DNA of 63,402 bases, filler included, from an uncultured Methanosarcinales archaeon (GCA_964587045.1; 3 parts of 3 records of this genome joined end to end with filler, not necessarily neighbours in it); one strand, 5' to 3'. Shown: positions 856 through 24,406, counted from the whole stretch's first letter. Notes: generated by a model not told the origin, from the sequence alone. Program-made: numbers and translations.

Positions 856-1704
856 TTACGCGAGTATGTTGTAGAAGACGTCGAAAATGGGCTGGTCGGT
901 CAGAACGGACCGGAATTCCACGTTGAAGTCGTCGCACATGTGCTTGAGATTCTCGATATGGGTGTTGAGGTCGGTGTTCAGGTTCATCTTGGTACGCCTG
1001 CTGATGAAGGTACGGTACAGCTCGTTGGTCTCCGAGTCCTTGAGGATGACGTCACCCTCGTAATCGATTTCCCTCTCAATCGGGTCGAGGACCTGCACGA
1101 CGATTATCTGGTTGCGTTTGAATCTGGTGAGGGTTTCACGCAGCTCCTCGAGGTCGAAGAGCAGATCGGATACTATGACGATGAGCGACGTCGTCTTGAT
1201 CATCTTCTTGAACTCAGCCAGGCACTTGCGGAACTCCGACTTGCCCCTGACAGGGAAAGCCTCGACCCTGTCGACGATGCTCACCAGCTGGTTCTTGCCC
1301 CTGCGCGCTTTGAACGAGTTCAGCTCCTCTGCGAAGGTCGAGAACTCGAACTTTTCGTTGTTCCTCATAGCCATGTAGGAGAACCCAAGGCCTATCATGG
1401 ACGCGTACTCGAACTTGGTTATCTTCCTGCCGAAGTCCATGCTGTTGCTAGCATCCACCAGCACGTGCACCTCGAGGTTGCGCTCCTCCTCAAAGGTCTT
1501 GATGTAGAAGTGCTCGGTCCGGCCGTAAACCCTCCAGTCGATGAGCCTGAAGTCATCACCGGGCACGTAGCTCCTGAAGTCCTTGAAGACCAGGCCCCTG
1601 CCAAAGGAGTGGGAGCGCCGGCCGCCGGAATAGCTTGAGGTTATCCTCTTCTTGATTATCAGCGAGAAGCGGTCCAGGTGCCGCAAAAAGGTGAGATCTA
1701 TCAT
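856..1704 (-). CDS. DUF58 family (MoxR-associated vWA-like) protein
   Basis: GRGLVFKDFRSYVPGDDFRLIDWRVYGRT signature, DASNSM MIDAS-like motif; start at ATG 1704. Confidence 0.9.
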   Translation of the reverse strand: MIDLTFLRHLDRFSLIIKKRITSSYSGGRRSHSFGRGLVFKDFRSYVPGDDFRLIDWRVYGRTEHFYIKTFEEERNLEVHVLVDASNSMDFGRKITKFEYASMIGLGFSYMAMRNNEKFEFSTFAEELNSFKARRGKNQLVSIVDRVEAFPVRGKSEFRKCLAEFKKMIKTTSLIVIVSDLLFDLEELRETLTRFKRNQIIVVQVLDPIEREIDYEGDVILKDSETNELYRTFISRRTKMNLNTDLNTHIENLKHMCDDFNVEFRSVLTDQPIFDVFYNILA

Positions 1705-2408
1705 TTTACTACCATCCCTTCCTTGGTTCTTACCGGCAGACTTATGTTTGCTGATAGGATTCTGCCTCCGAAGTCGTAGTCGTTGCAATGCGTGTAGTTT
1801 ATCAATGGATTGTAGCATCCTCCCAGGACCAATTGTCCTTCATCCCAGTCATAGTAAGTGTAGTTAATTTTCTTTATTGCTGTTTGGTCTCCAGCCCTGA
1901 GTACGGTTTGCGTGTGGTTTGCGTTTATTGTTACTGTATAATGCTCTTTGAATCTTATGTTGTGTAAGCAAAGTTCTTGGAATGTGTTGTTGTCGTCCAC
2001 GCACAGGCACATGGTTCCATTATTGTAGGTTGTTAACGAAATCCAATCTCGTAGCGGGTTTCCTAAGAATATTATATCTTGCACTTTTTGATCTCCTTTG
2101 TCCGCTTTGCGTTGTTTGTCAGTGATTATGTTAATTTGTGCTTTGATCAGGTGTTGTTTTTGTGTTTCCGAACTTAATTTTGCGCTGCCTGTCTTTTCGC
2201 ATACCTCTATAATTTTAATGGTTCCGAAAAGGATTACGATTGCTGTTATTGTTATGAAGAGTATTGTGAAGCCTTTCCACACTTTCGGTTTTTTACTTTT
2301 CAATTATTATTCCTCCTTACAGCTTCTTGCAGAATTGGAAGAACAACCTGTAGGAGAGTGTCATCCCCCTCTTGTTGTGTGGTGAGTTCAATGAGCCAAT
2401 CATTTTAC
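1700..2408. repeat. 10-bp direct repeat ATCATTTTAC (1700-1709 and 2399-2408) flanking an AT-rich insert
   Basis: Exact 10-mer at both junctions; each copy contains the ATGA stop/start overlap. Confidence 0.7.
1701..2303 (-). CDS. AT-rich membrane-anchored protein, possible LamG/ConA-like domain
   Basis: N-terminal TM helix; GGAGG upstream of TTG; C-terminal QLVLGG...DFGGRILSANI resembles LamG-type strands. Confidence 0.5.
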   Translation of the reverse strand: MKSKKPKVWKGFTILFITITAIVILFGTIKIIEVCEKTGSAKLSSETQKQHLIKAQINIITDKQRKADKGDQKVQDIIFLGNPLRDWISLTTYNNGTMCLCVDDNNTFQELCLHNIRFKEHYTVTINANHTQTVLRAGDQTAIKKINYTYYDWDEGQLVLGGCYNPLINYTHCNDYDFGGRILSANISLPVRTKEGMVVK

Positions 2409-3348
2409 GAGATCGCGTATGATGTCGTCAGGCTTCAGACCGTCCTTCTCCGCCTTGAAGCTCAGGATTAGACGGTGCCTGAGGACAGGGTGCGCCATAG
2501 CCTTGATGTCGTCCATGCTGACATACNNNNNNNNNNGCGTTGGCCTTAGCTGCCAGGACCCATCCAATCGATGCCCGGGGTGATGCGCCGTACTCGATGG
2601 TCTCCTTGTTGCTCCTGGTCTTCGTGACGACATCGACTACCTTCTTTTTGTAGTCGTTTGCGATTGGGACCTGTCGGGTGAGGTTCTGCAGCGCCAGAAT
2701 CGAAGCGCCGCTGAGCAGCTCCCTTACGCCCGACTGTGTGATCTCCTTGGTATAGCGCTCCACAATCTCGCGCTCCTCCTCAGGGGTCGGGTAATCAACC
2801 AGTATCTTGAGCAGGAACCTGTCGACCTGCGCTTCCGGCAGGGGGTAGGTCCCCTCCTGCTCGATGGGGTTCTGCGTGGCAAGCACAAAGAAGGGGCGCT
2901 CAAGCGGGAAGGTCATCGATCCGACAGTGACCTGCTTTTCCTGCATCGCCTCGAGGAGCGCGGCCTGCGTCTTGGGCGTCGCCCTGTTTATCTCGTCTGC
3001 CAGGACTATGTTTGCGAACACCGGCCCTTTCTGGAAGCGGAACTGCTTTTTGCCCTCTATCTCCTCTATGATATAGGTTCCCGTGATGTCGGAGGGCATG
3101 AGGTCGGGAGTGTTCTGGATCCTGGAGAACTTGAGCTTGAGCACCTCTGAGACGGTCTTGCACATGAGGGTCTTTCCCATTCCCGGATAGCTCTCAAGGA
3201 GGGCGTTGCCGTCGCAGAGAATCGACACGAGAATCTGGTCGATGACCTCCTGCTGGCCGACGATTACCTTGGCCACCTCTTTGGAAACCTTTGTGAAAGT
3301 CTCACGCAGCTTGTCTATGTTTCGAACACTTGATATGTCCTCACTCAC
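2400..3348 (-). CDS. moxR: MoxR family AAA+ ATPase (spans a 10-N gap)
   Basis: YPGMGKT Walker A, TPDLMPSDITG, VLADEINRATPKTQAALLEAM, ATQNPIEQEGTYPLPEAQVDRF; C-terminus VLRHRL in the other frame after the gap. Confidence 0.95.
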
Positions 3349-3399
3349 CCTTCCTCACCTCAGTAAAGCACGAAAGGCCTGACCCCTTTAAATATCTTT

Positions 3400-4185
3400 T
3401 CAATCCCTCTCGTTAATCCTTGTGAAGTATTCCTTGACTATAGCCTGCTCTTTCTTCGTGATGCCGTCATCGTACGAGGCGTCAGCGACGGCGAAGCCCT
3501 CATCGCCCTCGACTTCCCTGCGGAAGTCATTCTCCCTCAGCGGAGATTCGTCTATCTTGCTAATGTCCACCCCCACCCCTGACGGGTTGACCTCAATCTG
3601 AATCTCCTGGTCGCCGATCGGAAGGGGTCTTGCGTCCCCGTAGATTATGTCATCAGAAGGGCTTATGTCATCCCCAAAGAAGCTGTCAGAAACGAACTCA
3701 GCCGGGGACAGCGCGCCGATGTAATCGCCTATCTGCAGCATTGAAATGCTCATGGAGTGCATGAATATCAGCACGAACACCAGCAGCTGGATGCTGATGA
3801 CCTTGCTGACCATCCGTTTGGGGTTGATGACAGTGTAGCTGGAAACGCTCTTGGCCTTCCTCATGACCTCTGCAAAGAGCCCCTTGACCATGATGTTGTC
3901 CTCGTTCTTGTTGTCCTCGGCCGTCCTGAGTATCTCCCTCATGGCTGGGTTTTGGTCCTCGAACCTGTTTATCCTGGCCTGGGATGCGGTAAGGTAGAAC
4001 GAGACGAGGGCGTAAGCGAGGGCTATGTAGAGCGGAATCATGAAGCCAAGCGGTGTGAAGGAGAGGAAGAGGTACAGGATGAGGAAGACTATGCACCCGT
4101 TGAGTATCGAGTTTATGAGCGCGATCTTAACCAGCTCGAACTTCAACGCCCCGAAGAGGCCGATTATGTTGCTCTCGTGTTCCAT
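3400..4185 (-). CDS. Conserved membrane protein of archaeal MoxR-vWA operons
   Basis: Three TM segments, NPAMREILRTAEDN motif, acidic C-terminus ending IVKEYF; operon context. Confidence 0.65.
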   Translation of the reverse strand: MEHESNIIGLFGALKFELVKIALINSILNGCIVFLILYLFLSFTPLGFMIPLYIALAYALVSFYLTASQARINRFEDQNPAMREILRTAEDNKNEDNIMVKGLFAEVMRKAKSVSSYTVINPKRMVSKVISIQLLVFVLIFMHSMSISMLQIGDYIGALSPAEFVSDSFFGDDISPSDDIIYGDARPLPIGDQEIQIEVNPSGVGVDISKIDESPLRENDFRREVEGDEGFAVADASYDDGITKKEQAIVKEYFTRINERD

Positions 4186-4190
4186 CAGGA

Positions 4191-4742
4191 TCAGCCCGTC
4201 GCGTTGCACTCGTCCATGAGGTCCTCGTAGTCATTCTCCAGGTCCTCATACTTGATCTTCCACTGCTGGGTCTCGTTCAGCTGCTCCAGGTACCATCCGC
4301 GGTAGCGTGTGAGGTTTTCCTCGGTGTTGACGAGCTGCTTGTTCAGTATGACTATCTCTGCCTTCTTGGCGTCCAGCTCCTCAATAGTGTCGTCGAGATT
4401 GTCCTCGAGGTCCTTTATCTCCCCGGTCAACTCGGTGCGTGTCTTGTCCAGCTCGCCTGTCACGTTCATGTACAGCGAATCGTACTTGTCCAGATCGACC
4501 TTTATCGCGTTTAGTTCGTCCGAAGTCTCGTTGAACTTGCTGGAATAGTAATTGAGATTGTCCTTGGTGGAGGCTAGCTCTTGGGTGATCTGGGTTAGCT
4601 CAGTCGCCTTCTGCTGGTACTGGTCAGTGATTCTCGCGTACGACAGAACGTAGTAAACCCCCACCCCAACAGAGGTCAGGATGATAACAAAGACTAGTAG
4701 TAGCATGAAGAAATTGAGGTTCTTTGCCAGGTACTTGCTCAT
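4191..4742 (-). CDS. Membrane-anchored coiled-coil protein
   Basis: N-terminal TM followed by a heptad-rich helical region. Confidence 0.7.
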   Translation of the reverse strand: MSKYLAKNLNFFMLLLVFVIILTSVGVGVYYVLSYARITDQYQQKATELTQITQELASTKDNLNYYSSKFNETSDELNAIKVDLDKYDSLYMNVTGELDKTRTELTGEIKDLEDNLDDTIEELDAKKAEIVILNKQLVNTEENLTRYRGWYLEQLNETQQWKIKYEDLENDYEDLMDECNATG

Positions 4743-4770
4743 GCTCCCACTAAACGATTTGTCCTATTTA

Positions 4771-7212
4771 TTACTTTCCAAAGGTTCGGATCAGGCGGCG
4801 TATGACAACCTCGATGAAGTAAACTACCATCGCTATGATGACGAAGATCCAGGAGAGCGGCACCTTCGTGACCCTGAGACGTCGCGCTCGCGTCCTCGCG
4901 TACTCCAGCATCCCTTCAGCGTCGTCCGGCCGGAAGACCCGCCCTCCGGATGAGGTGATCATGCCATAGAACTCGGGGTCGTTTCCGAGGGCGCTGAATT
5001 CACGCTCGTAGTTGACAGCGTACTCTGCTCCTTCGAGCTCCTGGAAACCCTTCTTGTCAGGCACGAACTCTGAGAGATAGCTGTTGTCCTCGACCTTGTA
5101 GAAAACCAGGTCCCCTATCGCGGGATATGAGGGGCTCTGCACGAAGACCTCTGTCGGCGCGTAGATGCGGGTGTCAGGGACGTCCACGTAGTAATCCTTC
5201 TTCCTCTGCGGGTTGCCGACAGCCCAGTTGACGACCCTCACTATGAACTGCGAGTTCTCCCGAGAAAGCAGAGCGCCCAGAGAGTTCTCCCCAGAGAAGG
5301 TGGTGAGCGCAGCTACCCGCCCGAGACCGTACCGCCACACAGTCAGCGCAGGCTGGCCGTTGTCGAGGGAGACGAGCAGCTTGGCGTTACGCTTGGGGAT
5401 GACTGAGTTGTAGCCAAACATCGAAGCGTCGATGGAAAGGTCGCTGGTTATGTAATGGTCGGAATTCATCACCACCATGCTGTACTTGCCTTCCTCCTCC
5501 TGCGGGATCTCCTCTTCTAAGCTCTCGCCGAAGAGTATCTTTATCTTGCTCGACTCATTCGCGTGGAAGTAGAGTCCGTTCCCGTTGCGGGCTAAGGCCA
5601 GCATGTTCTCCTCGTCGACGATGCTGCCCACACCTATGGTGTACACCTTCACGCCTATCTTGCCCAGCTCGTAGACGTAGTTGATGGCTGCGTTTTTCTC
5701 GTAGTCGTTGGGAAACTGGCCGTCAGACAGCAGGATTATGTTCTTGCTCCCCCTCTTCTCCCTCATGACCTCGTAAGCTCCGTAGAGGCCCACGTAGAAG
5801 CTGGTTGCGTAGTTTTCTCCCTCCTTCCATGTGAGCGGGTCCAGGTGGGTTATCTTTTCCTTGATCAGCTCCTTCTTGTTGAGCAGGCCTGTTACGTCGG
5901 ATATCACGACATACTTGTTGTAGAATCCCAGCACTCCGACATTGCTGCTCTCCTTGATGTCGTCGATGATTCCAATCGCCAGGGCCTTCTCCCTGTCTAT
6001 GTCAGGGATGAGGCCATAGCCCTGGCGCAGGTAGCCGGTACTAGGCGAAACGTCGATGAGGAGCACTATGTTCACGTCCCCCTCGAAGTCCTCTTCGCCC
6101 TGACCTATGTTCACAGGCAGAAGGGTCTCGAAACGCGAGCTCTCGTATCCTCCGAAATTGAAGGATTTGAAACCCCCAATCACAACCAGGCCGTTACCGT
6201 CGTTTGCGAAAGCCACCAGGTCGTCGACATGCTCCTCGACAGCTTCGATGGGCAGGTCGTTGAGAACGACCGCGTAGTAGGCGGAGAGGTCGTCCGGAAT
6301 GCTAGTGCTGGTCGTGACGTCGTAGAGGCGCTCGAAGAACGTGTCGAGCGAGGTCGACCTCTCAGAAACCAGCAGTATCTCAGGCTTGTTGAGAATCTGG
6401 ATGGTCTTGTAAGCGACGTTGTTTTGCAGGAAGTAGTCCTCTCCTAGAACTGACTCAATCCTTGCGGATATTCTGTGGTAGCCCTCGCCGATCCAGCCGT
6501 AGCGCAGGGTGGTGACCGCGCTGTCGGTGTCCTTGTTGATGACGGTCCTGTCATCCACGGTCACGATCAGCCTGTACTGCGACATCTTTCCTGAGGATGT
6601 CACCCTCACGGTGAAGACGTTTTCTACGTCAGCCACGGACTGGGAGGGTCCGTCGATTGCTATTGCCAGGTCGGAATGGCTCGGTGTGAGGTTGAGCGTG
6701 CTTATGGACGCATTTAGGGTCTGCGAGTAAAGGGCGACGTCGCCGAGGTCGCTTCCTGTATTGGCCCTGCCGTCGCTAACCAGGATGATGTTCCGGTCCA
6801 ACCTGAGGGTCGAGAGCAGGTCGTCTCCCAGCGGCGACCTGGTCGCCCCGCCGGAATACAGTACCTCGACAGGTATCCTATCGGAAAGCCCGGCTATCAG
6901 CTCGTTGACCGGCGTGGTGTTGTACAGCTCAAAAGAGCTCGAGTTGTCGATGATGAAGGTCAGGGAAGGCTCACCTGCCGTGACCTCGTGAATCTCGTAG
7001 TAAGGCCTTGCAGCTGCAATGGCCAGCAGGAGTATCACAACGAAGTGGAAGACTATTATGATGAACCTGAGGGTCATCCTCCTCCTGCGGGCATAACCCC
7101 TGTCATCGAGCTTGACCATGTCCCAGCGGAGCAGCAGCACGATGGCGATCATCAGCGGCACTATCAGCGTAAGCATCCAGGGGCTCTCCAGGGCGAATGT
7201 CTCCAGCATCAC
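4771..7212 (-). CDS. Double vWA-domain membrane protein with glutamine-amidotransferase-like middle domain
   Basis: DNSSS and DVSPS MIDAS motifs, ILLSDG, WRYGLGRVAAL, N- and C-terminal TMs. Confidence 0.85.
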   Translation of the reverse strand: MMLETFALESPWMLTLIVPLMIAIVLLLRWDMVKLDDRGYARRRRMTLRFIIIVFHFVVILLLAIAAARPYYEIHEVTAGEPSLTFIIDNSSSFELYNTTPVNELIAGLSDRIPVEVLYSGGATRSPLGDDLLSTLRLDRNIILVSDGRANTGSDLGDVALYSQTLNASISTLNLTPSHSDLAIAIDGPSQSVADVENVFTVRVTSSGKMSQYRLIVTVDDRTVINKDTDSAVTTLRYGWIGEGYHRISARIESVLGEDYFLQNNVAYKTIQILNKPEILLVSERSTSLDTFFERLYDVTTSTSIPDDLSAYYAVVLNDLPIEAVEEHVDDLVAFANDGNGLVVIGGFKSFNFGGYESSRFETLLPVNIGQGEEDFEGDVNIVLLIDVSPSTGYLRQGYGLIPDIDREKALAIGIIDDIKESSNVGVLGFYNKYVVISDVTGLLNKKELIKEKITHLDPLTWKEGENYATSFYVGLYGAYEVMREKRGSKNIILLSDGQFPNDYEKNAAINYVYELGKIGVKVYTIGVGSIVDEENMLALARNGNGLYFHANESSKIKILFGESLEEEIPQEEEGKYSMVVMNSDHYITSDLSIDASMFGYNSVIPKRNAKLLVSLDNGQPALTVWRYGLGRVAALTTFSGENSLGALLSRENSQFIVRVVNWAVGNPQRKKDYYVDVPDTRIYAPTEVFVQSPSYPAIGDLVFYKVEDNSYLSEFVPDKKGFQELEGAEYAVNYEREFSALGNDPEFYGMITSSGGRVFRPDDAEGMLEYARTRARRLRVTKVPLSWIFVIIAMVVYFIEVVIRRLIRTFGK

Positions 7213-9080
7213 ACGTCACCCCTGAACTTGATGAAGAAAATCTCGACTAGCATTAGCAGAACCAGGGCAGCGAGCGCCTCCATGAGGAAGCCCTTCTGGA
7301 CCAACACCATGCCGTCACCTTGGCCGACCCCTCCTGCCTGGCTCACGTGGGGGGGTGCGAGGACCTTGGACTCGACTTCGCTGAGGAGGTTGACTGCCAC
7401 GGTCTTGTCGTTGAACTGGTAGAAACCCGCATCCTCGAGCACGAGGACCTTGCCCTTCCACTGGCCTCTAGGGGTGGTCACGGTGACGTCGTCAGGGAAC
7501 TGGAGGATCCTCCCTGTCCTCATGTTCAGGCTGCCGAGGTCCTCCTTCCTCATGAAGCTGGTTATCAGCTGGTTCCAGAAGAGGGGGTAGTCAGGGCTCA
7601 GCCTGAAGTCCGAGAGGTCGTCGTATATGCCGTAGTACATAGAGATGCCCTCCCCGTACGTCTTGTAGGCGATGATGGGGACATTGTCGGAAGTGCTCGC
7701 AACCACGGCAGTCCCGTCCTCGGCCTGCACCACCAGGTGCTTTGCTACGTAGCCTATCTCTATGTCCTTGGTAAGCGCGCTGGTCTCATCGGTCCAGACC
7801 GTGGTGCTGTTGCCCCGCGCGACGAACCGCACCGGGTTCATGCCGTAGTACTCAACCGAGAAGATGTCATCCTGGACGACCATTATGAACGTCGCGCCAG
7901 CGAGCACCTTCTCCTGGATGTCCCGCAGCGTCCCGGGGATTATCATCTCAGACCTCACCTGGTTGAGTATGATCACGTCATAGTCAAGCGAGGGTATTAT
8001 GGGCGGGTTTGCGTAGTCCACCTTGACGTTTGGAAGGGATAGGAGCGCGTCTGCGATGTAGCTTTCCTGCCTGTTGGTGATGATCAGGACCCTCACATCC
8101 TTTTTCTCCGGCGTGCTGAGGTAGGCTGTGTCGTCAGCAGGGAAGATGTCCTTGAACTCTCCCCCTCCGTGCGACACGGTAATCTCCGCGTTGCCCGGCG
8201 GCGTCTTGAAGCTCACGGGCACTATCTGTCCGGGCATGGCCTCGATCGTCTGCGCGGTCTGGCCGAAATTGATGGTTATGTCGTGCCTGACTGGGTCATA
8301 GTTCTTGGTGTACACCACAGTATTGTCGTCATCCACCTGCAGGTCTATTATGCCTATGTTGCCCCTGGCCTGGTAGCCCGATTCCTTCCCGGTCTCGGGG
8401 TCGATTATGGTCACAGTGCTTCCCTTGGACTCTATTATCCTGCGGGTGATGTCGAAGTCCTCCCCGACGCCCTGCATGTCTGAGAACACCACGACCCGGC
8501 CAGCCCTGGTGCCGAGGACGTCTTCGGCCATATCGAGCGCATCCTCAAGGCTCGTGGTCATGTCGGTCGGGTGCAGCTCAGAGAGCGCTTTTCGGGCGTC
8601 GGCCCTGCCTGCGTCCTGGACCACGAGCTGCGCGAAGCTTCCGGCTGATATCACGCTGGTCACGTCCCCTACGTAGCTCTTCGCGGTCTCAACTGAGGAT
8701 TCGAACCTGGTCTCGCCGTCGATTCTCACCTTGCTGCTTGCGGAGACGTCGACGACCAGCACAGTCGCTTCGCCGTAAAGGTCCTTTTCATCTAGGATGA
8801 AGGGCACAGCTGCTGCTACTGCGAAAGCCGCCAGCACCAAAAGCTGGATTATGACGAGCCAGTCCTTTATTAGGAACCTGAAGAGGGAGTACTTCTTCAT
8901 CTTCCCCTTCTCCTTTAGGAGGAACATGAGGGAGGGTATGGTCTTGCGGAGGGGCTTGGGCCTGAGAAGGTAGATGAGGATCAGGGCAGCCAACGCGGCA
9001 AGGCTGTACAGGGCCTTCGGGAAGATGAAATGCGAAGCAAACTGGGCGGCGTAGCTCGGGATCGTCTCTAGAATCGGCAT
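7209..9080 (-). CDS. BatA N-terminal/vWA domain protein
   Basis: ILIYLLRPKPLRKTIPSLMFL BatA-type start, VVDVSASS MIDAS, C-terminal TM. Confidence 0.85.
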   Translation of the reverse strand: MPILETIPSYAAQFASHFIFPKALYSLAALAALILIYLLRPKPLRKTIPSLMFLLKEKGKMKKYSLFRFLIKDWLVIIQLLVLAAFAVAAAVPFILDEKDLYGEATVLVVDVSASSKVRIDGETRFESSVETAKSYVGDVTSVISAGSFAQLVVQDAGRADARKALSELHPTDMTTSLEDALDMAEDVLGTRAGRVVVFSDMQGVGEDFDITRRIIESKGSTVTIIDPETGKESGYQARGNIGIIDLQVDDDNTVVYTKNYDPVRHDITINFGQTAQTIEAMPGQIVPVSFKTPPGNAEITVSHGGGEFKDIFPADDTAYLSTPEKKDVRVLIITNRQESYIADALLSLPNVKVDYANPPIIPSLDYDVIILNQVRSEMIIPGTLRDIQEKVLAGATFIMVVQDDIFSVEYYGMNPVRFVARGNSTTVWTDETSALTKDIEIGYVAKHLVVQAEDGTAVVASTSDNVPIIAYKTYGEGISMYYGIYDDLSDFRLSPDYPLFWNQLITSFMRKEDLGSLNMRTGRILQFPDDVTVTTPRGQWKGKVLVLEDAGFYQFNDKTVAVNLLSEVESKVLAPPHVSQAGGVGQGDGMVLVQKGFLMEALAALVLLMLVEIFFIKFRGDV

Positions 9081-9160
9081 GGCCAAGGATAGGTATGCCT
9101 CCTTTAAATACTTTTGTCAAAGATAAGTTTTTTATAATCATCTTTTCAGAGAGAAATATC

Positions 9161-10747
9161 ATGGTTACAAGGAGAAGGAGATCCGCCAAAAAAAGCGCAA
9201 GAGAAGAGAAGCTGGAAGACATGGTCACAATCAAGCTCCAAGAGCAGAAGATCGCCGATCTGATCGAGAAGAACAGGCGGCTGAGCGAGAGAGACGATGA
9301 GATTTCCCAGCTGTATGAAGAACTCTGCGAGGACTACAGCGACTTGGAGTCAAGGGCGGCGGATGTCATACAGAAGAACCAGGAGCTTGCCCACCAGCTA
9401 GGCAACATGAGCACAGTGATGGAAGAGGTGGCAGGCGGGAAGGCCGCGCTCGTGAGATCGCCTGAAGGCATATCCTTCGTCAGGAGCGACCAGCTCTCGG
9501 CACCGAGGAACCTCAAGGCCAAGGATTTGCGGCAGTCCGTGATAGGACTTGAGGATAATCTGAAGAGGAGGATCGTGGGTCAGGATGAGGCCATCCACGA
9601 ACTGGTGCACCACATAAGGATGATGGTCACAAGGGAGACCATTGACAGGCCCAAGGTGCTCAAGTTCCATGGACCCCGCGGCGTCGGGATATCCTACACT
9701 GCCGAGAGCCTGAACAGGCTGCTGTTCGATGGAATCGAGCAGGAGGAGATACCGATACTCAAGCTGGACTGCTCGGATTATATGGACCGCTACGACTACA
9801 ACTCAGCAAGCACGCTCCAGAACGCGCTCGAAGACGACGTAAGGACCATCAGCTCCTACCAAGAGAGGTATCCGGGATTCGGCATCATTATGCTCGACCA
9901 GTACATGTACGCAAACGCCAGGCTCAAGAACTTCCTGAGGACGCTTTTCGAGATGGGCGAGACTTTCAAGGGAAGCGAGCATTACAATTACAGCCAGAAG
10001 CTCTTCATCCTCCTAGACAGGAGCAAGGAGAGCAGGGAGGGTATTGGTTTCCACCCAGAAAAGGACAAGCAAGAAAATCCCTCAGTCCTCGGACACCTGT
10101 CATCTACGATAAGGTTCAGATTGCTCGGCAAGGACGACGCGCGAAGCATCTTCGAGCTCGAGGTCTCGAAAGTGGTGCGGGACTTCGGGGTCAACGTCGA
10201 CTTCACAAAAAACGCAAAAGACAGGATCATAAGCAAGGGCTTCTCTGAGCAGTACGGCGTGCACGGGCTCCAGCCAGCAATCGAGAAGGCCTTCGATCCT
10301 GTGGCAGAGAAGGTCCTGAACAAGAAGTTTTCCATTGACGACATGGTGGTCATAGGAGTCAAGAACGGCTCCTATTCCTACGAGTACGGGAAGGCGCCGC
10401 CCCAGAGGATCTACCCTACAGAGATTAGCTCGCCCATCAACTTCATGAGGCTCCTGGACAGGAACAAGGAGCCTGTCGGCTTCAGGTGCATAGCGAGCAA
10501 TGAGGATGACAGGATCCTGGTCTCGTACACCTTCAGGAAGGACAAGGAAGCGGTCCTGACCTACAGGAAGGGTGCCGACACCTACCAGATACAGGACAAG
10601 GACGGGAAGCCCGGAACCGTGGTCCTGAATGACAAGATTCTGAAAGACGAGGTACTTGAGCGTTTCGAGCCTGGAGCAGAGTACCTGCTAGCCACCTTCC
10701 GGGAGAAGTTCGGCATCACTCAGAGGCTCAAGGAGCTGGGCCGATAA
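9161..10747 (+). CDS. Coiled-coil plus degenerate ClpA/B/C second AAA+ domain protein
   Basis: LEDNLKRRIVGQDEAI, GPRGVGIS, IIMLDQ, GFSEQYGVHGL align to Clp NBD2 with substituted catalytic residues. Confidence 0.75.
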   Translation: MVTRRRRSAKKSAREEKLEDMVTIKLQEQKIADLIEKNRRLSERDDEISQLYEELCEDYSDLESRAADVIQKNQELAHQLGNMSTVMEEVAGGKAALVRSPEGISFVRSDQLSAPRNLKAKDLRQSVIGLEDNLKRRIVGQDEAIHELVHHIRMMVTRETIDRPKVLKFHGPRGVGISYTAESLNRLLFDGIEQEEIPILKLDCSDYMDRYDYNSASTLQNALEDDVRTISSYQERYPGFGIIMLDQYMYANARLKNFLRTLFEMGETFKGSEHYNYSQKLFILLDRSKESREGIGFHPEKDKQENPSVLGHLSSTIRFRLLGKDDARSIFELEVSKVVRDFGVNVDFTKNAKDRIISKGFSEQYGVHGLQPAIEKAFDPVAEKVLNKKFSIDDMVVIGVKNGSYSYEYGKAPPQRIYPTEISSPINFMRLLDRNKEPVGFRCIASNEDDRILVSYTFRKDKEAVLTYRKGADTYQIQDKDGKPGTVVLNDKILKDEVLERFEPGAEYLLATFREKFGITQRLKELGR

Positions 10748-10786
10748 TCATAACCTTTAAATAAGGCTCCTACGACCCTTCTGCAC

Positions 10787-12220
10787 ATGAACGAGCTAGG
10801 GCTGACTGTCAAGAAGAAGGATGACATGGTGGAGTGGTATTCCCAGATCGTCCTTAAGAGCGAGCTTGCGGACCTCGCGCCAGTCAGGGGATGCATGGTC
10901 ATCAGGCCTGACGGCTACGAGCTTTGGCAGGCCATCACAGACTACTTCAACGGCCGCCTCAAGGCGATGGGCATAAGGAACGCCTACTTCCCAATCTTCA
11001 TACCTGAGTCGTTCTTTCGGAGGGAGTCCAAGCACGTGGAGGGATTCGAGCCCGAGGTGGCTTGGGTCGCCAACAAGGACGAGGAGAAGGGCGAACGGCT
11101 GGCGCTGAGGCCGACCTCTGAGACCATCATGTACGATTCCTATTCGCGGTGGATCAGGTCTTGGAGGGACCTGCCCCTGCGGATCAACCAGTGGTGCAAC
11201 ATAATCCGCTGGGAGGTGAAGGATGTAAAGCTATTCCTGAGGAGCAGGGAGTTCCTCTGGCAGGAGGGACACTGCGTCTACGAAACAGAGGAGGAGTGCG
11301 ACAGGGAGACCATTATGATAATAAAAGAGTACCAGCGCCTCTCCGAAGAAATTCTGGCCATCCCGGTTCTCATGGGCACCAAGACAGAGAAGGAGAAGTT
11401 CGCCGGAGCCAAGTACACCACGACCATCGAAGGATTCATGCCAGACGGCAAGGCCCTTCAGATGGGGACAAGCCACAACCTTGGGCAGTCGTTTGCCAAG
11501 GCATTCGGAATAGAATACATCGGAAAGGATGAGAAGAAGCACACCCCGTGGCAGAACAGCTGGGGCTTCTCCACCCGCCTTCTCGGCGCGGTGGTCATGG
11601 TACACGGGGACGACAAGGGCCTCGTTCTGCCTCCCAGGCTCGCCCCGCACAAGCTCGTGATAATCCCGATACTCACCAAGAAGGACAGGGATGCGGTCGT
11701 GAAGGCAGCCCAGAAGCTGGGAGCGGACCTGTCCCAGTTCAACCCGCTATTCGACGAAAGGGAGGAGTACAGCCCAGGGTGGAAGTTCAACCATTGGGAG
11801 CTCAAAGGGATACCGCTCAGGCTAGAGCTGGGCCCAAAGGACCTCGCCGCAAAGCAGGTTGTCTTAGTCCGCAGGGACACCGGCGAGAAACTGGCTGTGA
11901 AGCTTTCTGAAGTGAAGAAGTCCATAAAAAAGCTGCTGGAATCGATGCACGCCGACATGCTCGCCAAGGCCCGCAAGACAATGGAGGACAGCACTTTCGA
12001 GACAGCAGACTGGGACGCGTTCATGGACCTCATCCAGTCGCGCAAGCTGGTGAAGACCTACTTCTGCGGGGAGAGCGAATGCGAGGACTGGATCAAGGAC
12101 AAGACAGGAGGTGCGACCAGCAGGTGCACGCCGCTCGGGTCGAAGCCTCCCAAGTCCAAGAAATGCGTCCATTGCGGAAAGGATGCCAAGGTCGAGATAT
12201 ACTTCTCTAAGAACTACTAG
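10787..12220 (+). CDS. proS: Proline--tRNA ligase, archaeal/eukaryotic type
   Basis: LRPTSET, FLRSREFLWQEGH, QMGTSHNLGQ, HGDDKGLVLPP, C-terminal Zn-binding CxxC and FSKNY end. Confidence 0.98.
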   Translation: MNELGLTVKKKDDMVEWYSQIVLKSELADLAPVRGCMVIRPDGYELWQAITDYFNGRLKAMGIRNAYFPIFIPESFFRRESKHVEGFEPEVAWVANKDEEKGERLALRPTSETIMYDSYSRWIRSWRDLPLRINQWCNIIRWEVKDVKLFLRSREFLWQEGHCVYETEEECDRETIMIIKEYQRLSEEILAIPVLMGTKTEKEKFAGAKYTTTIEGFMPDGKALQMGTSHNLGQSFAKAFGIEYIGKDEKKHTPWQNSWGFSTRLLGAVVMVHGDDKGLVLPPRLAPHKLVIIPILTKKDRDAVVKAAQKLGADLSQFNPLFDEREEYSPGWKFNHWELKGIPLRLELGPKDLAAKQVVLVRRDTGEKLAVKLSEVKKSIKKLLESMHADMLAKARKTMEDSTFETADWDAFMDLIQSRKLVKTYFCGESECEDWIKDKTGGATSRCTPLGSKPPKSKKCVHCGKDAKVEIYFSKNY

Positions 12221-14194: not shown

Positions 14195-15826
14195 GTGGTG
14201 GCCCTGAAGTACGGCCAGCTTACTAAATACGTCAAAAAAGAGCTCGACCGCGGATTCTCCCTCGACAGGATAAAAGAGAAGCTCATACTCGCAGGCTACG
14301 ACGACGAGGCCATCGACCACGTCATCCACAAGGTCGCTGACGAAAAGGAGGACGTCGTAAAGGAGTACTACTTCCACACCTACGTCTTCGAGTACCTAAA
14401 GAAGCTATCCTTGGGGATCGAGGAGATAATAATCTTCCTCATCATCGCACTGAACGTGCTTGATATCACGGGCAACCTCTTCGGCGAGCTCGACTTCCTA
14501 AAAAAGGTCATCTCGTGGACAGCGATAGGCTACGTGTTCGGCCGCCTCCAGATATCCAGGGTGCTGTTCGGCCACAGGAACAAGACGCGCGACCGCCTGA
14601 TCCTCGCCACCTTCTTTTTGCTGGTGATAAAGGGATTCGTCCACTACTTCGCTGCAGACGAGACGCAGGCGCTGTCCAGCATCTTCACCATCATCTCAAT
14701 CTACTCAGCCCAGATACAGTTCTATTCCTTTACCCTCGGCACCCTCCTGCTCATAGTAACCTCAGTAGTCATCGGGCTGAGGAGCCACTTCGCAGAGCCT
14801 AGCATCCTTGCCATGCTTATAGGCACCGGAGACCCGCCTGACAGCCTTGGAAAGAAGCTGCTGCGGGTGTTCCTCGTGCTGTTCGTGCTCACGAGCTTCT
14901 ACCTGTTCATCTTCGATCCCATCATGGAATGGCTCTCGATAGCGGTAGACGCGCCGCTGCTCATGATCGCCCTGTTCTACTACCTGCTCATGTACAAGAA
15001 GCACCACGAGACTTCCATCATCCACAGGGCGGGCGACGCGGGCGACAGGTTCATCCAGCAGTTCATCAACCTCTTCCTGTCCAAGCGCACCCTCTTCCTG
15101 GGCGTGGCAGGCCTGATATGCCTGCGCGTTTTGGTAGACCTCTCCGTCTTCATCATCCCCTACATCACCGGCGTGGTCAACCCCTACTACTTCGCGGGGC
15201 TCGACCCTGCGACGCACGTGCCACTGGTCAGGATAGCCGCGCACCACGTGGGAATCACCGCGCTGCCTGACGCCATAGGGCTCGCGGCCACCTACCTGTT
15301 CACCATACTGGCCGTGGTCGGGGCATCGCTTTGGGTGCCGATGCTTTGGGCAGTGCTCAAGAACGGAAGGGCGCCCAGGATTCCCGCCTGGCTGCTCTCG
15401 ATCTTCCTCGCGTCCCTTACCAGCCTAATACTGAACCCGGCTCTCGCCTTCAAGCCGATGATCGCCGAAGGCCTGGTCGGGGTGGACATCACCACCTTCC
15501 CGGCGCCTTACATAGGAACGGCCTTTGCTGCTGCCCTTTTCGTCTTCATCGCATCGCTGCTCGCCCACCACATGAGGCGCCTGCTGATAGGCCTGGCGAC
15601 GGCCGCATCCCTGCTGCTGTTCACAGTGTACAACCTCTACTTCCTGCAGTCCATAATGGCGTACTACTACTCCCTTCTCGAGATGCTTGCTGGGACGTGG
15701 TACTACCACCTGATGTTCGCAATCGTCCTGTTCATGGTGACGACTGCGCTCTTCTACCTGTTCGGCTACGTCACATTCCTCGTAGAAACAGTCAGGAGCG
15801 TCAGGATGCTTTCTGAGCCTGCTTGA
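14195..15826 (+). CDS. Polytopic membrane protein with a small N-terminal helical domain
   Basis: More than 10 hydrophobic segments; N-terminal KYVKKELDRGFSLDRIKEKLILAGY. Confidence 0.8.
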   Translation: MVALKYGQLTKYVKKELDRGFSLDRIKEKLILAGYDDEAIDHVIHKVADEKEDVVKEYYFHTYVFEYLKKLSLGIEEIIIFLIIALNVLDITGNLFGELDFLKKVISWTAIGYVFGRLQISRVLFGHRNKTRDRLILATFFLLVIKGFVHYFAADETQALSSIFTIISIYSAQIQFYSFTLGTLLLIVTSVVIGLRSHFAEPSILAMLIGTGDPPDSLGKKLLRVFLVLFVLTSFYLFIFDPIMEWLSIAVDAPLLMIALFYYLLMYKKHHETSIIHRAGDAGDRFIQQFINLFLSKRTLFLGVAGLICLRVLVDLSVFIIPYITGVVNPYYFAGLDPATHVPLVRIAAHHVGITALPDAIGLAATYLFTILAVVGASLWVPMLWAVLKNGRAPRIPAWLLSIFLASLTSLILNPALAFKPMIAEGLVGVDITTFPAPYIGTAFAAALFVFIASLLAHHMRRLLIGLATAASLLLFTVYNLYFLQSIMAYYYSLLEMLAGTWYYHLMFAIVLFMVTTALFYLFGYVTFLVETVRSVRMLSEPA

Positions 15827-18800
15827 TGGCCTGGTTAACCAGGTGGGAGGGCCACCCGCTCTCCTCGAGCCGCTTCCTGATGGCCTTGTCGCCGCCGCCC
15901 ATCTCCCTGGCCTGCTCGACGTACTCGATGAGCATGCCCATGTGCTCGTCCATCTTGACTGTGTGGGGCGAGAACCGGTGAAAGAAGATGAAGAACACCG
16001 AGACAAGGGGTATTATGAGCAGCGGCCACAGGTCGAACATTGATATCCCCACAGTCTGGCTGGTTATGGTCCCTGCGACCGCGACGGTCGACGCGCCCCT
16101 CACCTTGCTCGATGAGACGTCTCCCTTCACCGAGTAGGTTATCTCGATCTCCTGGTCGACTTTTGCAAACGACCAGACGATAAGCGGGTCGCTCTCGATG
16201 ACCGTGAAGGGGTGGTTGCTCTCGATCTCAGATGCTGAGTACGCAACGTCTTTTGGGATGTCCTCGTAGACAGAGAAGTTGTACAGAACGACCTCAGGAT
16301 CGATCCTGATCCTGATCTCGGTCTCGTTCTTCTTCTTGACCTGCTTGACGCTCTTTGATATGCTTGCGCGCTTCTGGGTGGCCTGGGCCCTGGCCTCGAC
16401 GCGCGAAACCTCATTTGCCACGTCCTCAGACCCGGCCTGCGGCTGCGTCCGGGCGATATCCTTTTCGATGGCCCGCCTGACAGCCTCGAAGTCGGCAGTC
16501 ACCGGCACCTCCTCCTCGCTCCTGATGCTCTGGACCACCGAGTCGAGGACCTTGACAGTTCCTGCCAACAGCTCAATCTTGGGCTTGTAGACGAAGAATA
16601 TGTCCTGCTTGATGAACTCCTGCGAGTATGGGTCCTTGCACATGACCTCGAGGAAGTTCTCGCCCTTTACAGGATTGAGGGGAAGCCCAGTGACCAGGTC
16701 AGCCTCCTGCCCCTCGTTTAGCCTGAACCTGCACAGCCCGAAAGACCTGGCCTTCAGGATCACGTCAGAAGAGTAGGTGGTGCCGTTCTCCGGTGACAGC
16801 ACCTCCAAGGTGAGATTGTTCGAGACTATCCTGAAGGTGCGCCTCACCTCGTACCTCACCACGTCGTTGACCGTGTCGTACAGCGTGACCTTGACCTGCT
16901 GCTCGCCGTCCCTGTCGAACCTCACGGTCTGGCCGGGGTTTATAGTCCTCTCAGCGTCAGCGGTCTCTATGCGCATCACGATCGCGTCGCGGTCGAAGTC
17001 CACACCCGGCTTTTCGTATATGAAGTTGAACGGGACGTCCAGCGTCCTGACAGTCTCGCCTTCGGCCGGCATCACGGCGAACCTCTCTGCAACCGGCTGC
17101 TTGGGCTTTTCAACCGTGAATTCGATTACCTCGGACTTGGCAGATACCCTGCCTGTCTGGTCGTACCCGCGGAACCAGACTTGATGCCTGCCTGCGGCGA
17201 CGTACTGCGCCCTGCTCCTGCTCCTCATCTGGTAGCCTTCTTCGTCGAGCATCATGGAAAGTATCAGCCCGTCGGGCGCGCTTCCCACCTCGAAATTCAG
17301 CGTGCCTTCGGGATAGGTCCCGCCCTGCGTGGGGCTCTTCACCGCGATGAGGCCGGTCTGGATCCGGTCCTCCACAGGGTTTATCACCACAATCAGGACG
17401 TCAAAGATGTTGGTGTTCATGGTCGCCAGGTTAGTGACAGACACCTTGAAGTCGTTCTCTCCCGCGTCGCTCGCAAGAGGCGTCCATGAGAACCTGCCCA
17501 GCTCGTCGACCCTGAACCTGGGCGGGTCAACCTCGACGTTGACGCCCGTCTCGGGGACGAAAGGCAGCGTCGCAACGAGTTTTTGGCCGGCCTCAACCCT
17601 GTAAACCTGAGTCTCAGGCATGTCAGTCGTTGGCCGGACCAGAACGCGGATGGTCAGGTTGGCCATCGCGCCCTTTGAGTCAACCGCGATCACGGCCAGG
17701 GAGAACGGGTCTGAGGCGTACACTTCAGGGGTGAAGCTCCTGGTGCTCCACTTCCCCACTTGGGTGACAGAGATTTGGTCGCCGTCAGGGTCCCGCACCA
17801 CGTAGTCAAGGTCGACCTGCTGGCCGACGTAGGTCTCGTAGTAGGTGGTTCCACCGATCACCGGCTTCTGGTTGCTCACAGTACCGGTCACGTTGATGCA
17901 TCGGTCGCCGAACCACGTGCCCTCGCAGGGGCAGCCTGTGGAATCGACATACCCCCCGCCGTTGTCGTACCTGCAGCTGTCGTAAGGCTCGCACTGCTCC
18001 TGGTCGTAGTATCCGTCGCTGTCCGCATCGGTGCATGCGACGCCTTGGCTGCACTGGAGCGCGGTCTCCCGGCTCTCGACGCAGTGGTTCCGGACGCATG
18101 AGTACTCGGTGAGCACGTAGGCGCCGTCGCAGTAGTCCATGAAGCTCTGGCCGGCTGGGTCTGTGCACGTCCCCCTCACAGTTAGAGGATTCGCAGCTGT
18201 GGAATCAGTGTCTGAGCAGTCGCCGTAGACCGACTCGCAGGAGTTGTCCACGCAGTCGTAGCCCATCGCGCAGTCTGATGTCTCACGGCACTCGACGCAC
18301 ACGTTGTCCTGGCAGAATCCTATCGGGCACTGAGCGTCATAGGAGCACTGCACGCATTCGTGAAGGGTTTCATCGCAGCGGGTGTTGTAGGCGTTGGAGG
18401 AGCAGTCCGGGTCTTCGAGGCACTCGACGCACGCGCCGTTGAAGCAGGGGCAGATGGTGGTTGTGATGTAGGTCGGGCAGGCGCCTGACGTATCGCAGAC
18501 CACAACTGAGCTTTTGTCTTCGTTGCACGCGGTCGCACCTGCTGTGCAGTCGTTTCCGCAAAGGGCTTGATCCTCTGAATAGCACTCGCCCCCTGAACTG
18601 ACCGACATTTCCGGGTGCGGGCAGCAGACCGAGTCTGAGGCGAGGTATTCACCCTCATTGTCACCGCAGCAGCCCTCCTGCCCAAATGAAGTGTATGACC
18701 CAAACGGTTCATCACTACCTGAAACAGCTACAGTATTGCCGCACTCAGTGCAGTACTGGCCGTCAGAACCGCATGGTATGCAGACGTGGTTGCTCGTGCA

Positions 18801-19223
18801 CAAGGGTTCTGTTGGCGGGCAGTGGCTGTTCTGGGTGCACTGCACACACACACCATAGATGCATATTGGGTACTGGTCAGGGCAGTTGTCTTCCTCGCGG
18901 ACCAAGCATCCATGCTCGTCGGCCTGACACGTCCAATAAGATGTCTCATTGCTGCATTGTTTTTCACCAGCTGAGCAGGTGTCAGTGCATGCCTCTGCTT
19001 CGGCGCATTGCTGGCGGAGGTCATCGCATGCCGTGTTGTCTGAGGTGCAGTACTGGACTTCGCAATCAGTCGTGCAGTCGCATACGTAGTCATCAAAGCA
19101 GGTCACTCCATCAGACTGGCCGCATATCTGCAGGCAGCGAGTCGATGTCGTGCAAGGATCCGATTTCGCAAATGGTAGAAGTAGTATTGCTAGGACTAGG
19201 AAAACGTACCTCTTTTCTCCCAT
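15801..19223 (-). CDS. Large Cys-rich surface protein with Ig-like domains and C-terminal TM
   Basis: Signal peptide, CVEC/CVQC repeats, DPDGD, Ig-like strands, TM plus cytoplasmic helical tail. Confidence 0.85.
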   Translation of the reverse strand: MGEKRYVFLVLAILLLPFAKSDPCTTSTRCLQICGQSDGVTCFDDYVCDCTTDCEVQYCTSDNTACDDLRQQCAEAEACTDTCSAGEKQCSNETSYWTCQADEHGCLVREEDNCPDQYPICIYGVCVQCTQNSHCPPTEPLCTSNHVCIPCGSDGQYCTECGNTVAVSGSDEPFGSYTSFGQEGCCGDNEGEYLASDSVCCPHPEMSVSSGGECYSEDQALCGNDCTAGATACNEDKSSVVVCDTSGACPTYITTTICPCFNGACVECLEDPDCSSNAYNTRCDETLHECVQCSYDAQCPIGFCQDNVCVECRETSDCAMGYDCVDNSCESVYGDCSDTDSTAANPLTVRGTCTDPAGQSFMDYCDGAYVLTEYSCVRNHCVESRETALQCSQGVACTDADSDGYYDQEQCEPYDSCRYDNGGGYVDSTGCPCEGTWFGDRCINVTGTVSNQKPVIGGTTYYETYVGQQVDLDYVVRDPDGDQISVTQVGKWSTRSFTPEVYASDPFSLAVIAVDSKGAMANLTIRVLVRPTTDMPETQVYRVEAGQKLVATLPFVPETGVNVEVDPPRFRVDELGRFSWTPLASDAGENDFKVSVTNLATMNTNIFDVLIVVINPVEDRIQTGLIAVKSPTQGGTYPEGTLNFEVGSAPDGLILSMMLDEEGYQMRSRSRAQYVAAGRHQVWFRGYDQTGRVSAKSEVIEFTVEKPKQPVAERFAVMPAEGETVRTLDVPFNFIYEKPGVDFDRDAIVMRIETADAERTINPGQTVRFDRDGEQQVKVTLYDTVNDVVRYEVRRTFRIVSNNLTLEVLSPENGTTYSSDVILKARSFGLCRFRLNEGQEADLVTGLPLNPVKGENFLEVMCKDPYSQEFIKQDIFFVYKPKIELLAGTVKVLDSVVQSIRSEEEVPVTADFEAVRRAIEKDIARTQPQAGSEDVANEVSRVEARAQATQKRASISKSVKQVKKKNETEIRIRIDPEVVLYNFSVYEDIPKDVAYSASEIESNHPFTVIESDPLIVWSFAKVDQEIEITYSVKGDVSSSKVRGASTVAVAGTITSQTVGISMFDLWPLLIIPLVSVFFIFFHRFSPHTVKMDEHMGMLIEYVEQAREMGGGDKAIRKRLEESGWPSHLVNQAIKQAQKAS

Positions 19224-19961: not shown

Positions 19962-20251
19962 TGGGAAAACCTGTAGTGGGAGAGGAGTTACTGGACCGAT
20001 TGATAGACCAGCTTAGGAAGAAGGGCCTCTCCTACCGTGAGATCTTCTCCATGCTGGACAGCTCGGAGGCCGCTGTTTCTCTTATTCCCATCGAGATCTT
20101 CGAAGATCGGCGCCTCGGCCCTTTGGAAGCTATCATTCTCTACCTCAAGGACCAGCGCGGACTGACATACCACAAGATAGCCTTGCTGCTGAAACGCAAC
20201 GACCGCACCATTTGGACCGCGTACCAGAAGGCCAGGAGGAAGGTACAATGA
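19961..20251 (+). CDS. Small HTH DNA-binding protein (sigma70-r4-like, DPANN-type)
   Basis: IPIEIFEDRRLGPLEAIILYLKDQRGLTYHKIALLLKRNDRTIWTAYQKA. Confidence 0.75.
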   Translation: MGKPVVGEELLDRLIDQLRKKGLSYREIFSMLDSSEAAVSLIPIEIFEDRRLGPLEAIILYLKDQRGLTYHKIALLLKRNDRTIWTAYQKARRKVQ

Positions 20252-24306: not shown

Positions 24307-24406
24307 NNNNNNNNNNNNNNNNNNNNNNNNNNNNNNNNNNNNNNNNNNNNTTAATTAATTAANNNNNNNNNNNNNNNNNNNNNNNNNNNNNNNNNNNNNN
24401 NNNNNN
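24307..24406. other. Artificial contig linker
   Basis: N-run, TTAATTAATTAA (stops in all six frames), N-run. Confidence 0.95.

Follow-up and report, generated by a model that had tools for sequence, protein, structure and literature searches.

Class II Clp ATPases such as ClpX and HslU form one ring of the type of the second nucleotide-binding domain (NBD2), accompanied by a variable N-terminal part (PMC9133912, in its accessible text). In ClpA, ClpC and ClpX, the IGF loop docks in the H-sites of the protease ClpP, where the acyldepsipeptide (ADEP) antibiotics bind too (PMC9035409, in the sections available). Bodies of this clade also exist without a working motor: LULL1 and LAP1, the dead AAA+-like partners of Torsin, have a Clp-clade body without working Walker motifs, and LULL1, which is without the small domain, activates Torsin by donating an arginine finger (available part of PMC4999309). 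The plant SMXL/D53 proteins keep both NBDs with their Walker motifs and are without IGF/L (PMC9133912, same portion). Here, we describe a further protein with a Clp-type body, P0001, encoded in a stretch of 63,402 nucleotides (the window) from the genome of an uncultured archaeon (GCA_964587045.1, here G000). Its open reading frame (ORF; Table 1) specifies 528 amino acids (aa) comprising a coiled coil, one NBD2 of the ClpB/ClpC type and an orphan C-terminal domain. The residues that it carries at the catalytic positions make P0001 a well-supported candidate pseudo-ATPase. The source genome has 1.6 Mb in 50 contigs and is rated 100% complete; the ORF sits on contig C27, and we infer that the order is Woesearchaeales (DPANN).

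By sequence and by fold, residues 117-410 of P0001 are the second nucleotide-binding domain of ClpB/ClpC. A phmmer comparison paired the protein with Thermus thermophilus ClpB (1qvr) at E 4.8e-16, and the Pfam family ClpB_D2-small exceeded its cut-off at residues 322-392. The AlphaFold2 (AF2) model, whose mean predicted local distance difference test score (pLDDT) is 57.6, was matched by Foldseek to the ClpB NBD2 chain 4fcw (E 2.8e-17, TM-score 0.74 on the target), so that the fold check bears out the domain assignment of an earlier note on this DNA. The NCBIfam matches were of the ClpA/B/C/Hsp104 types, at 23-67 bits against cut-offs of 885-1900. There was no match to the Clp N-domain (PF02861) or to NBD1 in P0001, which has a single NBD. 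P0001 shares the large and D2-small fold with the class I Hsp100 proteins ClpB (T. thermophilus 1qvr/4fcw) and ClpC (Bacillus subtilis and Staphylococcus aureus), and it has an IGF at the ClpP-docking position of ClpC. It differs from both in being without N-domain and NBD1, in having lost the catalytic and pore residues except the Walker B Asp, in the deletion of the helix after the IGF, in its extra C-terminal domain and in a genome where no ClpP was found. The single NBD with an IGF-type loop recalls the class II proteins, whereas the NBD itself is ClpB/C-like and not ClpX-like in its PDB and NCBIfam matches, and is dead. Judged by its sequence, P0001 is neither a class I Clp protein, having one NBD, nor an active class II one.

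The case for a dead motor comes from an alignment of P0001 with 19 homologues, of which 14 have a single NBD2 and 5 are full-length Clp proteins. The Walker A Lys and Thr, the pore Tyr, the Walker B Glu, the sensor-1 Asn, the arginine finger and the sensor-2 Arg are invariant in these homologue rows (19/19), and P0001 has I177, S178, N221, Q247, R287, H312 and H368 in the same columns. The pore-1 motif G-Y-x-G reads Q220-N221-A222-L223, leaving the Tyr column without an aromatic residue, and sensor-1 T-S-N reads L285-D286-R287. The replacements listed in the earlier note (Walker A, pore loop, Walker B, sensor-1, arginine finger and sensor-2) are all confirmed against these invariant columns. 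Its wording that every catalytic element is replaced holds for the key residues but is slightly too strong, since P0001 retains the Walker B D246, the P-loop residues G171, P172, G174 and G176, the G140-Q141 box and the IGF glycine, and the change of Thr to Ser is conservative. Overall, P0001 keeps 18 of 40 conserved columns, and the other 19 rows keep 33-40 of 40-45. The loss is biased toward functional residues: 1 of 8 canonical catalytic or pore residues is kept, as against 17 of 32 other conserved columns (Fisher p 0.044), and in a wider functional set, chosen after the fact, the counts are 0/16 and 18/24. Under established AAA+ chemistry, neither hydrolysis nor threading is expected without such catalytic and pore residues. 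P0001 would be unable to hydrolyse ATP because its catalytic residues are lost, and unable to thread substrate because its pore loop is lost.

The residues retained around the pocket could be read in another way, as a non-canonical nucleotide-binding switch that would bind ADP or ATP with little or no hydrolysis and regulate the C-terminal domain. G140-Q141, the P-loop glycines, S178 and D246 are kept, and the new Arg173 and Arg287 could replace the lost Lys. Alignment A3, of 14 rows, has seven columns without any variation, and five of these (Q141, G171, G174, G176 and D246) line the nucleotide pocket in the established anatomy of ClpB. However, the same residues are also structural, the model is too coarse for side chains at its mean pLDDT, and the change of the Walker A Lys to Ile together with the loss of both arginines normally abolishes nucleotide binding. 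We consider such a switch very unlikely.

Could the gene simply be decaying? The ORF has no internal stop and its codon use is host-like, as the earlier note had claimed: among the 563 long ORFs of the genome, it stands at the 74th percentile for the codon adaptation index and at the 70th for GC content at third codon positions, with the C-terminal domain at the 93rd percentile for codon adaptation. When the NBD stretch was mutated neutrally in silico (300 runs), the chance of no stop was 0.003 already at 60% identity, and the frame of P0001 is open although its best relative among 1.84 billion representatives is only 31% identical. Because the frame is open at no more than 31% identity to any relative and the codon use is host-like, the gene reads as neither a pseudogene nor a case of simple decay. 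Given archaeal promoter spacing, the upstream TATA-like box suggests an own, leaderless transcript, and because such boxes precede both its ATG and proS, the gene is probably monocistronic. Contigs of a public salt-marsh run (X1, which may be the source sample) have identical letters across Walker A, pore loop and Walker B, and those of runs X3 and X4 across pore loop and Walker B. Since these contigs agree, the three degenerate motifs are not assembly errors; no run spans 10016-10303, where sensor 1, IGF, arginine finger and sensor 2 lie. Population variation amounted to one synonymous difference, in one shallow run contig. The earlier view of a Clp NBD2 pseudo-ATPase under continued selection is supported.

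The relatives of P0001 are distant. A word search of about 5.8 billion proteins gave no close homologue among the best 7998 candidates, which were scored, and no match of P0001 passed 1e-30 in a homology search of the 1.84 billion representatives. There was no close homologue in Joint Genome Institute (JGI) metagenome contigs. Four of the top matches (P0070, P0072, P0073 and P0088; 435-458 aa) consist of an N-terminal coiled coil, seen by eye, and one NBD2 with intact motifs. A scan of viral records with P0088 and one of metagenomes with P0070 gave no match, and a genome-contig scan gave, among the matches listed, bacterial records. A profile built from P0001 and these four sisters was then applied to 401 genomes of the order (E<1e-13, best four candidates per genome scored) and matched 15 of them, G000 included. 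The loci read comprised 9 complete single-NBD2 proteins in 8 genomes (G013, G214, G376, G346, G312, G026, G208 and, twice, G162), one cut single-NBD2 protein (G265), full two-domain ClpB/C proteins in 4 genomes and one fragment (G155). The complete single-NBD2 gene is patchy, being found in 8 of 400 relatives. About 170 weak profile matches were not counted as relatives, those read being clamp-loader-like or ClpX-like. When 401 genomes were drawn from the phylum, there were 5 matches at E<=1e-15, and every one fell within the same order. Genomes flagged as unpublished enter only the order-wide tallies and the ClpX-like proteins mentioned below (G374 and G370), and none is a single-NBD2 carrier.

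The single-NBD2 Clp ATPases at loci L008, L010-L013, L015, L017 and L019 (G013, G214, G376, G346, G312, G026, G208 and G265) look active and have IGF-like loops, with no ClpP found. Their N-terminal parts differ, and the five scanned gave no Pfam match. The same order also has stand-alone ClpX-like ATPases with odd N- or C-terminal domains (L021 853-2397 in G023, L023 in G004, L027 in G374, L028 in G399 and L029 in G370), among which L021 combines an IGF loop with a unique C-terminal domain.

In a 49-row tree of NBD2 sequences, P0001 groups with the four coiled-coil proteins as their sister (96/90), and together they belong to a single-NBD2 clade of 12 rows (98/96); a grouping of P0001 with the 23 canonical ClpB/C rows is rejected by the approximately unbiased (AU) test (p-AU 0.015). 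That tree left out the ClpX-like rows, L017, L047 and most canonical matches, which were subsampled. In a FastTree run that included the ClpX-like rows, P0001 lies outside the clade, next to the root. L009 falls outside the single-NBD2 clade. The single-NBD2 relatives (the four sisters, P0085 and the proteins of the eight genomes above; 11 rows inside the 98/96 branch) share with P0001 the lone NBD2 and the IGF-like loop. Unlike P0001, they keep the Walker A K/T, the pore Tyr, the Walker B DE, the sensor-1 Asn, the arginine finger and the sensor-2 Arg, and they are without its C-terminal domain. All 14 aligned single-NBD2 homologues keep every catalytic residue and are 16-31% identical to P0001. 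Because they do, the death of the motor would be private to the P0001 lineage as far as sampled, and it is probably old. The earlier note had regarded homologues with intact Walker motifs as a sign of recent decay. Such homologues exist, but they are only 16-31% identical, which argues for lineage-specific death and not for recent decay.

What, then, would such a protein do? We propose that P0001 is an ATPase-dead, non-threading, ATP-independent binding scaffold, with a probability of about 0.5. Its ancestor would have been a single-ring Clp-type unfoldase, with a variable N-terminal part and one ClpB/C NBD2 with an IGF loop, from a clade scattered through the DPANN order. In the lineage of P0001, the motor would have been fully switched off, the AAA+ fold retained and a new C-terminal domain gained. 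The coiled coil and the AAA+ body may hold subunits together in an oligomer, and the IGF plug, the new C-terminal domain or both could bind a partner protein other than this cell's ClpP. The biased motif loss, the open frame, the host-like codons, the placement in the tree, the failure to find ClpP and the precedent of LULL1/LAP1 all support a scaffold. P0001 and LULL1/LAP1 are alike in having a dead Clp-clade AAA+ body, but P0001 has His312 at the arginine finger and retains the small domain, and its genome has no active Clp partner for it. Because its arginine finger is a His and there is no active partner, P0001 is, on present sequence, not a member of the LULL1/LAP1 type. With SMXL/D53, which are eukaryotic, it has in common a ClpB-derived body, in SMXL apparently repurposed for regulation.

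Several observations weigh against a scaffold. P0001 is a singleton, without a second dead copy in the protein, genome-order, phylum and metagenome searches or among the genome-contig matches listed, and because of this neither its dead motifs nor its C-terminal domain are demonstrably conserved. No other branch of the tree is as long (2.0 changes per site), a length that is also compatible with relaxed selection. The placement of a long branch can be wrong, the sisters were chosen as top matches, and the group in the AU test was defined once the tree had been seen. Outside the catalytic positions, change has also reached about half of the conserved columns, and some 20 residues around the IGF are deleted, including the helix before the arginine finger, which may disturb ring assembly. 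The gene neighbourhood suggests no partner. Part of this would be expected if P0001 were a dispensable, fast-drifting relic, that is, a Clp domain that was jobless after its acquisition, with no ClpP, and that came under weak selection with the IGF as a leftover, any remaining function being confined to the coiled coil or the C-terminal domain. The singleton status, the long branch, the deletions in the NBD, the altered non-catalytic columns and the patchiness of the clade all fit a relic, but the absence of stops and frameshifts despite extreme divergence (by the simulation above), the more frequent loss of catalytic than of structural sites, the host-like codon use and the TATA-like box do not. 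We regard a relic as unlikely.

The scaffold proposed here could act in part through its IGF loop, which raises the question of the partner. The triad I295-G296-F297 aligns with the triads of the homologues, where ClpA/C/X bear the ClpP-docking loop, as the earlier note had recognised. The pattern [ILV]G[FIY] stands at this place in all 14 single-NBD2 homologues, and [ILV]GF in 11; the dead motifs of P0001, by contrast, are conserved in none of them, so that a comparison across homologues upholds the triad only. In 15,997 random 18-aa windows of the genome's long frames, [IVL]GF occurs at a chance rate of 1.1% and the looser pattern at 5.7%. The segment from sensor 1 to the arginine finger has 26 aa in P0001, as against 42-49 in the 14 homologues, with deletions flanking the triad on both sides.

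The ClpP family PF00574 has 0 matches in G000, and the same control search was positive in 12 of 14 genomes. G000 encodes the 20S alpha and beta subunits, PAN, DnaK and a PF01343 protease; looking for protease genes, as the earlier note had suggested, gave a proteasome but no clpP. No other (active) Clp ATPase was found in G000. Two roles put forward earlier for P0001 within its own cell, an ATP-independent protease adaptor or activator and a dominant-negative inhibitor, are left without a target, because the genome has neither ClpP nor an active Clp ATPase for them to act on. In the order as a whole, PF00574 matched at E<1e-12 in just 6 of 401 genomes, a set that includes no single-NBD2 carrier, and the nine carrier relatives (75-100% complete) had no ClpP-length match. 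A further 138 weaker matches were rejected as ClpP, most spanning model positions ~28-98 in frames of ~300 aa; those in G013, which is SppA-like by eye, and in G312, of the same kind, were rejected too. Elsewhere in the order, contig C24 of G040 (L128) has a bacterial-looking pair of clpP and clpX, which would be either a recent transfer or a binning error.

A loop without ClpP in the cell could also point outward. If the archaeon lives on bacteria and passes P0001 to its host, the IGF loops could occupy the H-sites of the host's ClpP, opening the gate without ATP as ADEP do or displacing ClpX/ClpC, or the protein could poison host ClpB/ClpC rings as a dead subunit; its active relatives would be unfoldases borrowing host ClpP. 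The single-ring clade of the DPANN order would then target ClpP in bacteria, be they host or prey, with P0001 as an ATP-independent ADEP mimic or an inhibitor. The triad is IGF-like in 14/14 homologues across long branches, yet there is no ClpP in the nine carriers or in G000, and in P0001 it has survived the deletions on its flanks, at the low chance rate of [IVL]GF. The H-site is shared by IGF and ADEP (PMC9035409, in its accessible sections), and annotated Clp ATPases are also present in large bacterial phages, a precedent for parasite-borne ones. Lytic transglycosylase (SLT) matches, of which G000 has 2, also occur in 7 of the 9 carrier relatives, and such enzymes have been taken to indicate that Woesearchaeota prey on bacteria (PMC9723730, available part). 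No background rate accompanies the SLT count, whose 7 positives include 5 from one family (f133). ClpP is so rare in the whole order that one would expect the carriers to be without it in any case. IGF-like loops are also borne by full-length ClpC-like proteins of genomes in the order that have no ClpP, hence such a loop can be kept where no partner is visible. The loop of P0001, which is shortened, may fail to reach ClpP, and the protein has no export signal (neither a signal peptide nor a transmembrane stretch; the highest 19-aa hydropathy is 0.65). A host-directed protein therefore seems to us quite unlikely, and we favour a scaffold with some other partner.

On the N-terminal side of the NBD, AF2 predicts a helix at residues 2-91, with a block of pLDDT 66-85 over residues 11-50, in keeping with the coiled coil proposed earlier. 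A hint in the phmmer alignment that this helix might be the ClpB middle domain and linker is not supported, 20% of shuffles scoring as high with a profile of 168 linkers. The earlier note had also likened the following segment to the start of the PAN OB domain. A hidden Markov model (HMM) of 23 PAN N-termini does align residues 86-107 in the proposed register, at 1.9 bits over 22 positions, with 3% of 1000 shuffles as high (p=0.03). This likeness is borderline: a pairwise comparison with PAN gave p 0.29, pLDDT is <50 over residues 92-118, there is no Pfam PAN-OB match at E<=1, and the PP-L hinge and the rest of the OB fold are missing. Together with the 20S alpha, 20S beta and PAN genes of G000, it could be taken to mean that P0001 serves the archaeal PAN/20S proteasome as an adaptor or regulator and pairs with PAN by way of its own PAN-like coiled coil and OB start. 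But only 22 of ~60 OB positions are covered, the gene is not beside the proteasome genes, the AAA domain is of the ClpB/C type and not classic-clade as in PAN, and the tail of P0001 ends in ELGR, which does not fit the gate-opening HbYX motif. We give such an adaptor a very slim chance.

The extra C-terminal domain, put at ~120 aa in the earlier note, has 118 aa. It had no homologue among shorter proteins, the Atlas or Pfam, and its single-sequence AF2 model (pLDDT 38, about 40) gave a best fold at Z 5.5, which is not meaningful. Matches to it in the 401 genomes (the best in G009 at E 3e-4, and nine weaker) were rejected as unrelated-looking frames, DnaK and eRF1 among them; one weak match, L040, has a stop inside. 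A likeness by eye to the C-terminal domain of the ClpX-like protein of G023 was not significant (p 0.235), and that domain had no other copy in 301 genomes.

The gene is transcribed divergently from an operon for BatA/vWA, vWA, coiled-coil, DUF7502, MoxR and DUF58 proteins, which confirms the arrangement described earlier. In G021, the same operon has, by eye, a pseudouridine-synthase-like gene upstream instead, and the homologous Clp genes lie in unrelated contexts. A functional link to the MoxR/vWA operon was set aside because the homologues do not share this context, and the operon is probably an incidental neighbour. The MoxR gene (window 2428-3348, minus strand) has a short run of N toward its 3' part, probably an assembly gap, and is out of frame beyond. 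Further along the window, 15801-19223 (minus strand) encodes a cysteine-rich protein of 1140 aa with hydrophobic stretches at both termini; it is probably a surface protein. The frame at 20212-24354 (plus strand), cut by the end of contig C27, encodes a large repeat protein rich in Asn, Ser and Thr that looks like a beta-helix. The two lytic-transglycosylase matches (PF01464) of G000 are at C40:4115-4402 (L005/L187) and C2:55470-55805 (L188); the C40 protein has 185 aa and a hydrophobic N-terminus, and its gene is tail to tail with the PAN gene. The annotated Clp ATPase of one phage record, NC_029057.1 (L192), has 724 aa.

Table 1. Features of the P0001 locus, in window coordinates.
Feature	Position	Strand	Basis or remark
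Whole ORF, 528 aa (P0001)	9161..10747	+	coiled coil, predicted ATPase-dead ClpB/C-type NBD2, orphan C-terminal domain
Basic N-terminal tail and long amphipathic helix/coiled coil, aa 1-85	9161..9415	+	AF2
PAN OB first-strand-like segment, aa 84-107	9410..9481	+	HMM of 23 PAN N-termini
AAA+ large (alpha/beta) domain, ClpB/C NBD2 type, predicted catalytically dead, aa 117-321	9509..10123	+	phmmer, Foldseek, alignment
Degenerate Walker A GPRGVGIS (Lys to Ile177, Thr to Ser178)	9671..9694	+	alignment; run X1 contig identical
Walker B Asp246-Gln247 (Glu to Gln)	9896..9901	+	alignment; contigs of X1, X3, X4 identical
IGF triad I295-G296-F297 at ClpP-docking loop position	10043..10051	+	aligned with homologues' triads
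AAA+ small (D2-small) domain, predicted dead sensor 2 (GVH for GAR, His368)	10124..10390	+	Pfam PF10431 over cut-off
Orphan C-terminal domain, 118 aa, beta-meander then helix (two low-confidence models)	10391..10744	+	no convincing homologue
TATA-like box (TTTTATAA)	9130..9137	+	24-31 nt before ATG; by eye
TATA-like box (TTTAAATA) ahead of proS	10756..10763	+	by eye; same distance before gene
proS, next gene	10787-12220		Pfam
Divergent operon BatA/vWA, vWA, coiled coil, DUF7502, MoxR, DUF58	856..9086	-	ORF reading, Pfam

Finally, a fully dead ClpB/C NBD2 in an intact archaeal gene would be a natural pseudoenzyme of a well-studied motor. A literature search, with most subscription journals outside it, gave no description of a dead archaeal NBD2 or of the single-NBD2 clade and no paper dealing with Clp proteins in these archaea, and the main text of PMC8204110 has no occurrence of "Clp"; its supplements, outside the search, may list such genes. 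As a singleton, P0001 may prove to be a lineage-specific curiosity. It has nevertheless brought to light a clade of Clp ATPases that have a single NBD2 and an IGF-like loop, in genomes without detected ClpP. The conservation of a ClpP-docking loop without ClpP bears on what these archaea live on, and, if P0001 were indeed directed at a host, it would be an archaeal effector aimed at bacterial proteostasis.

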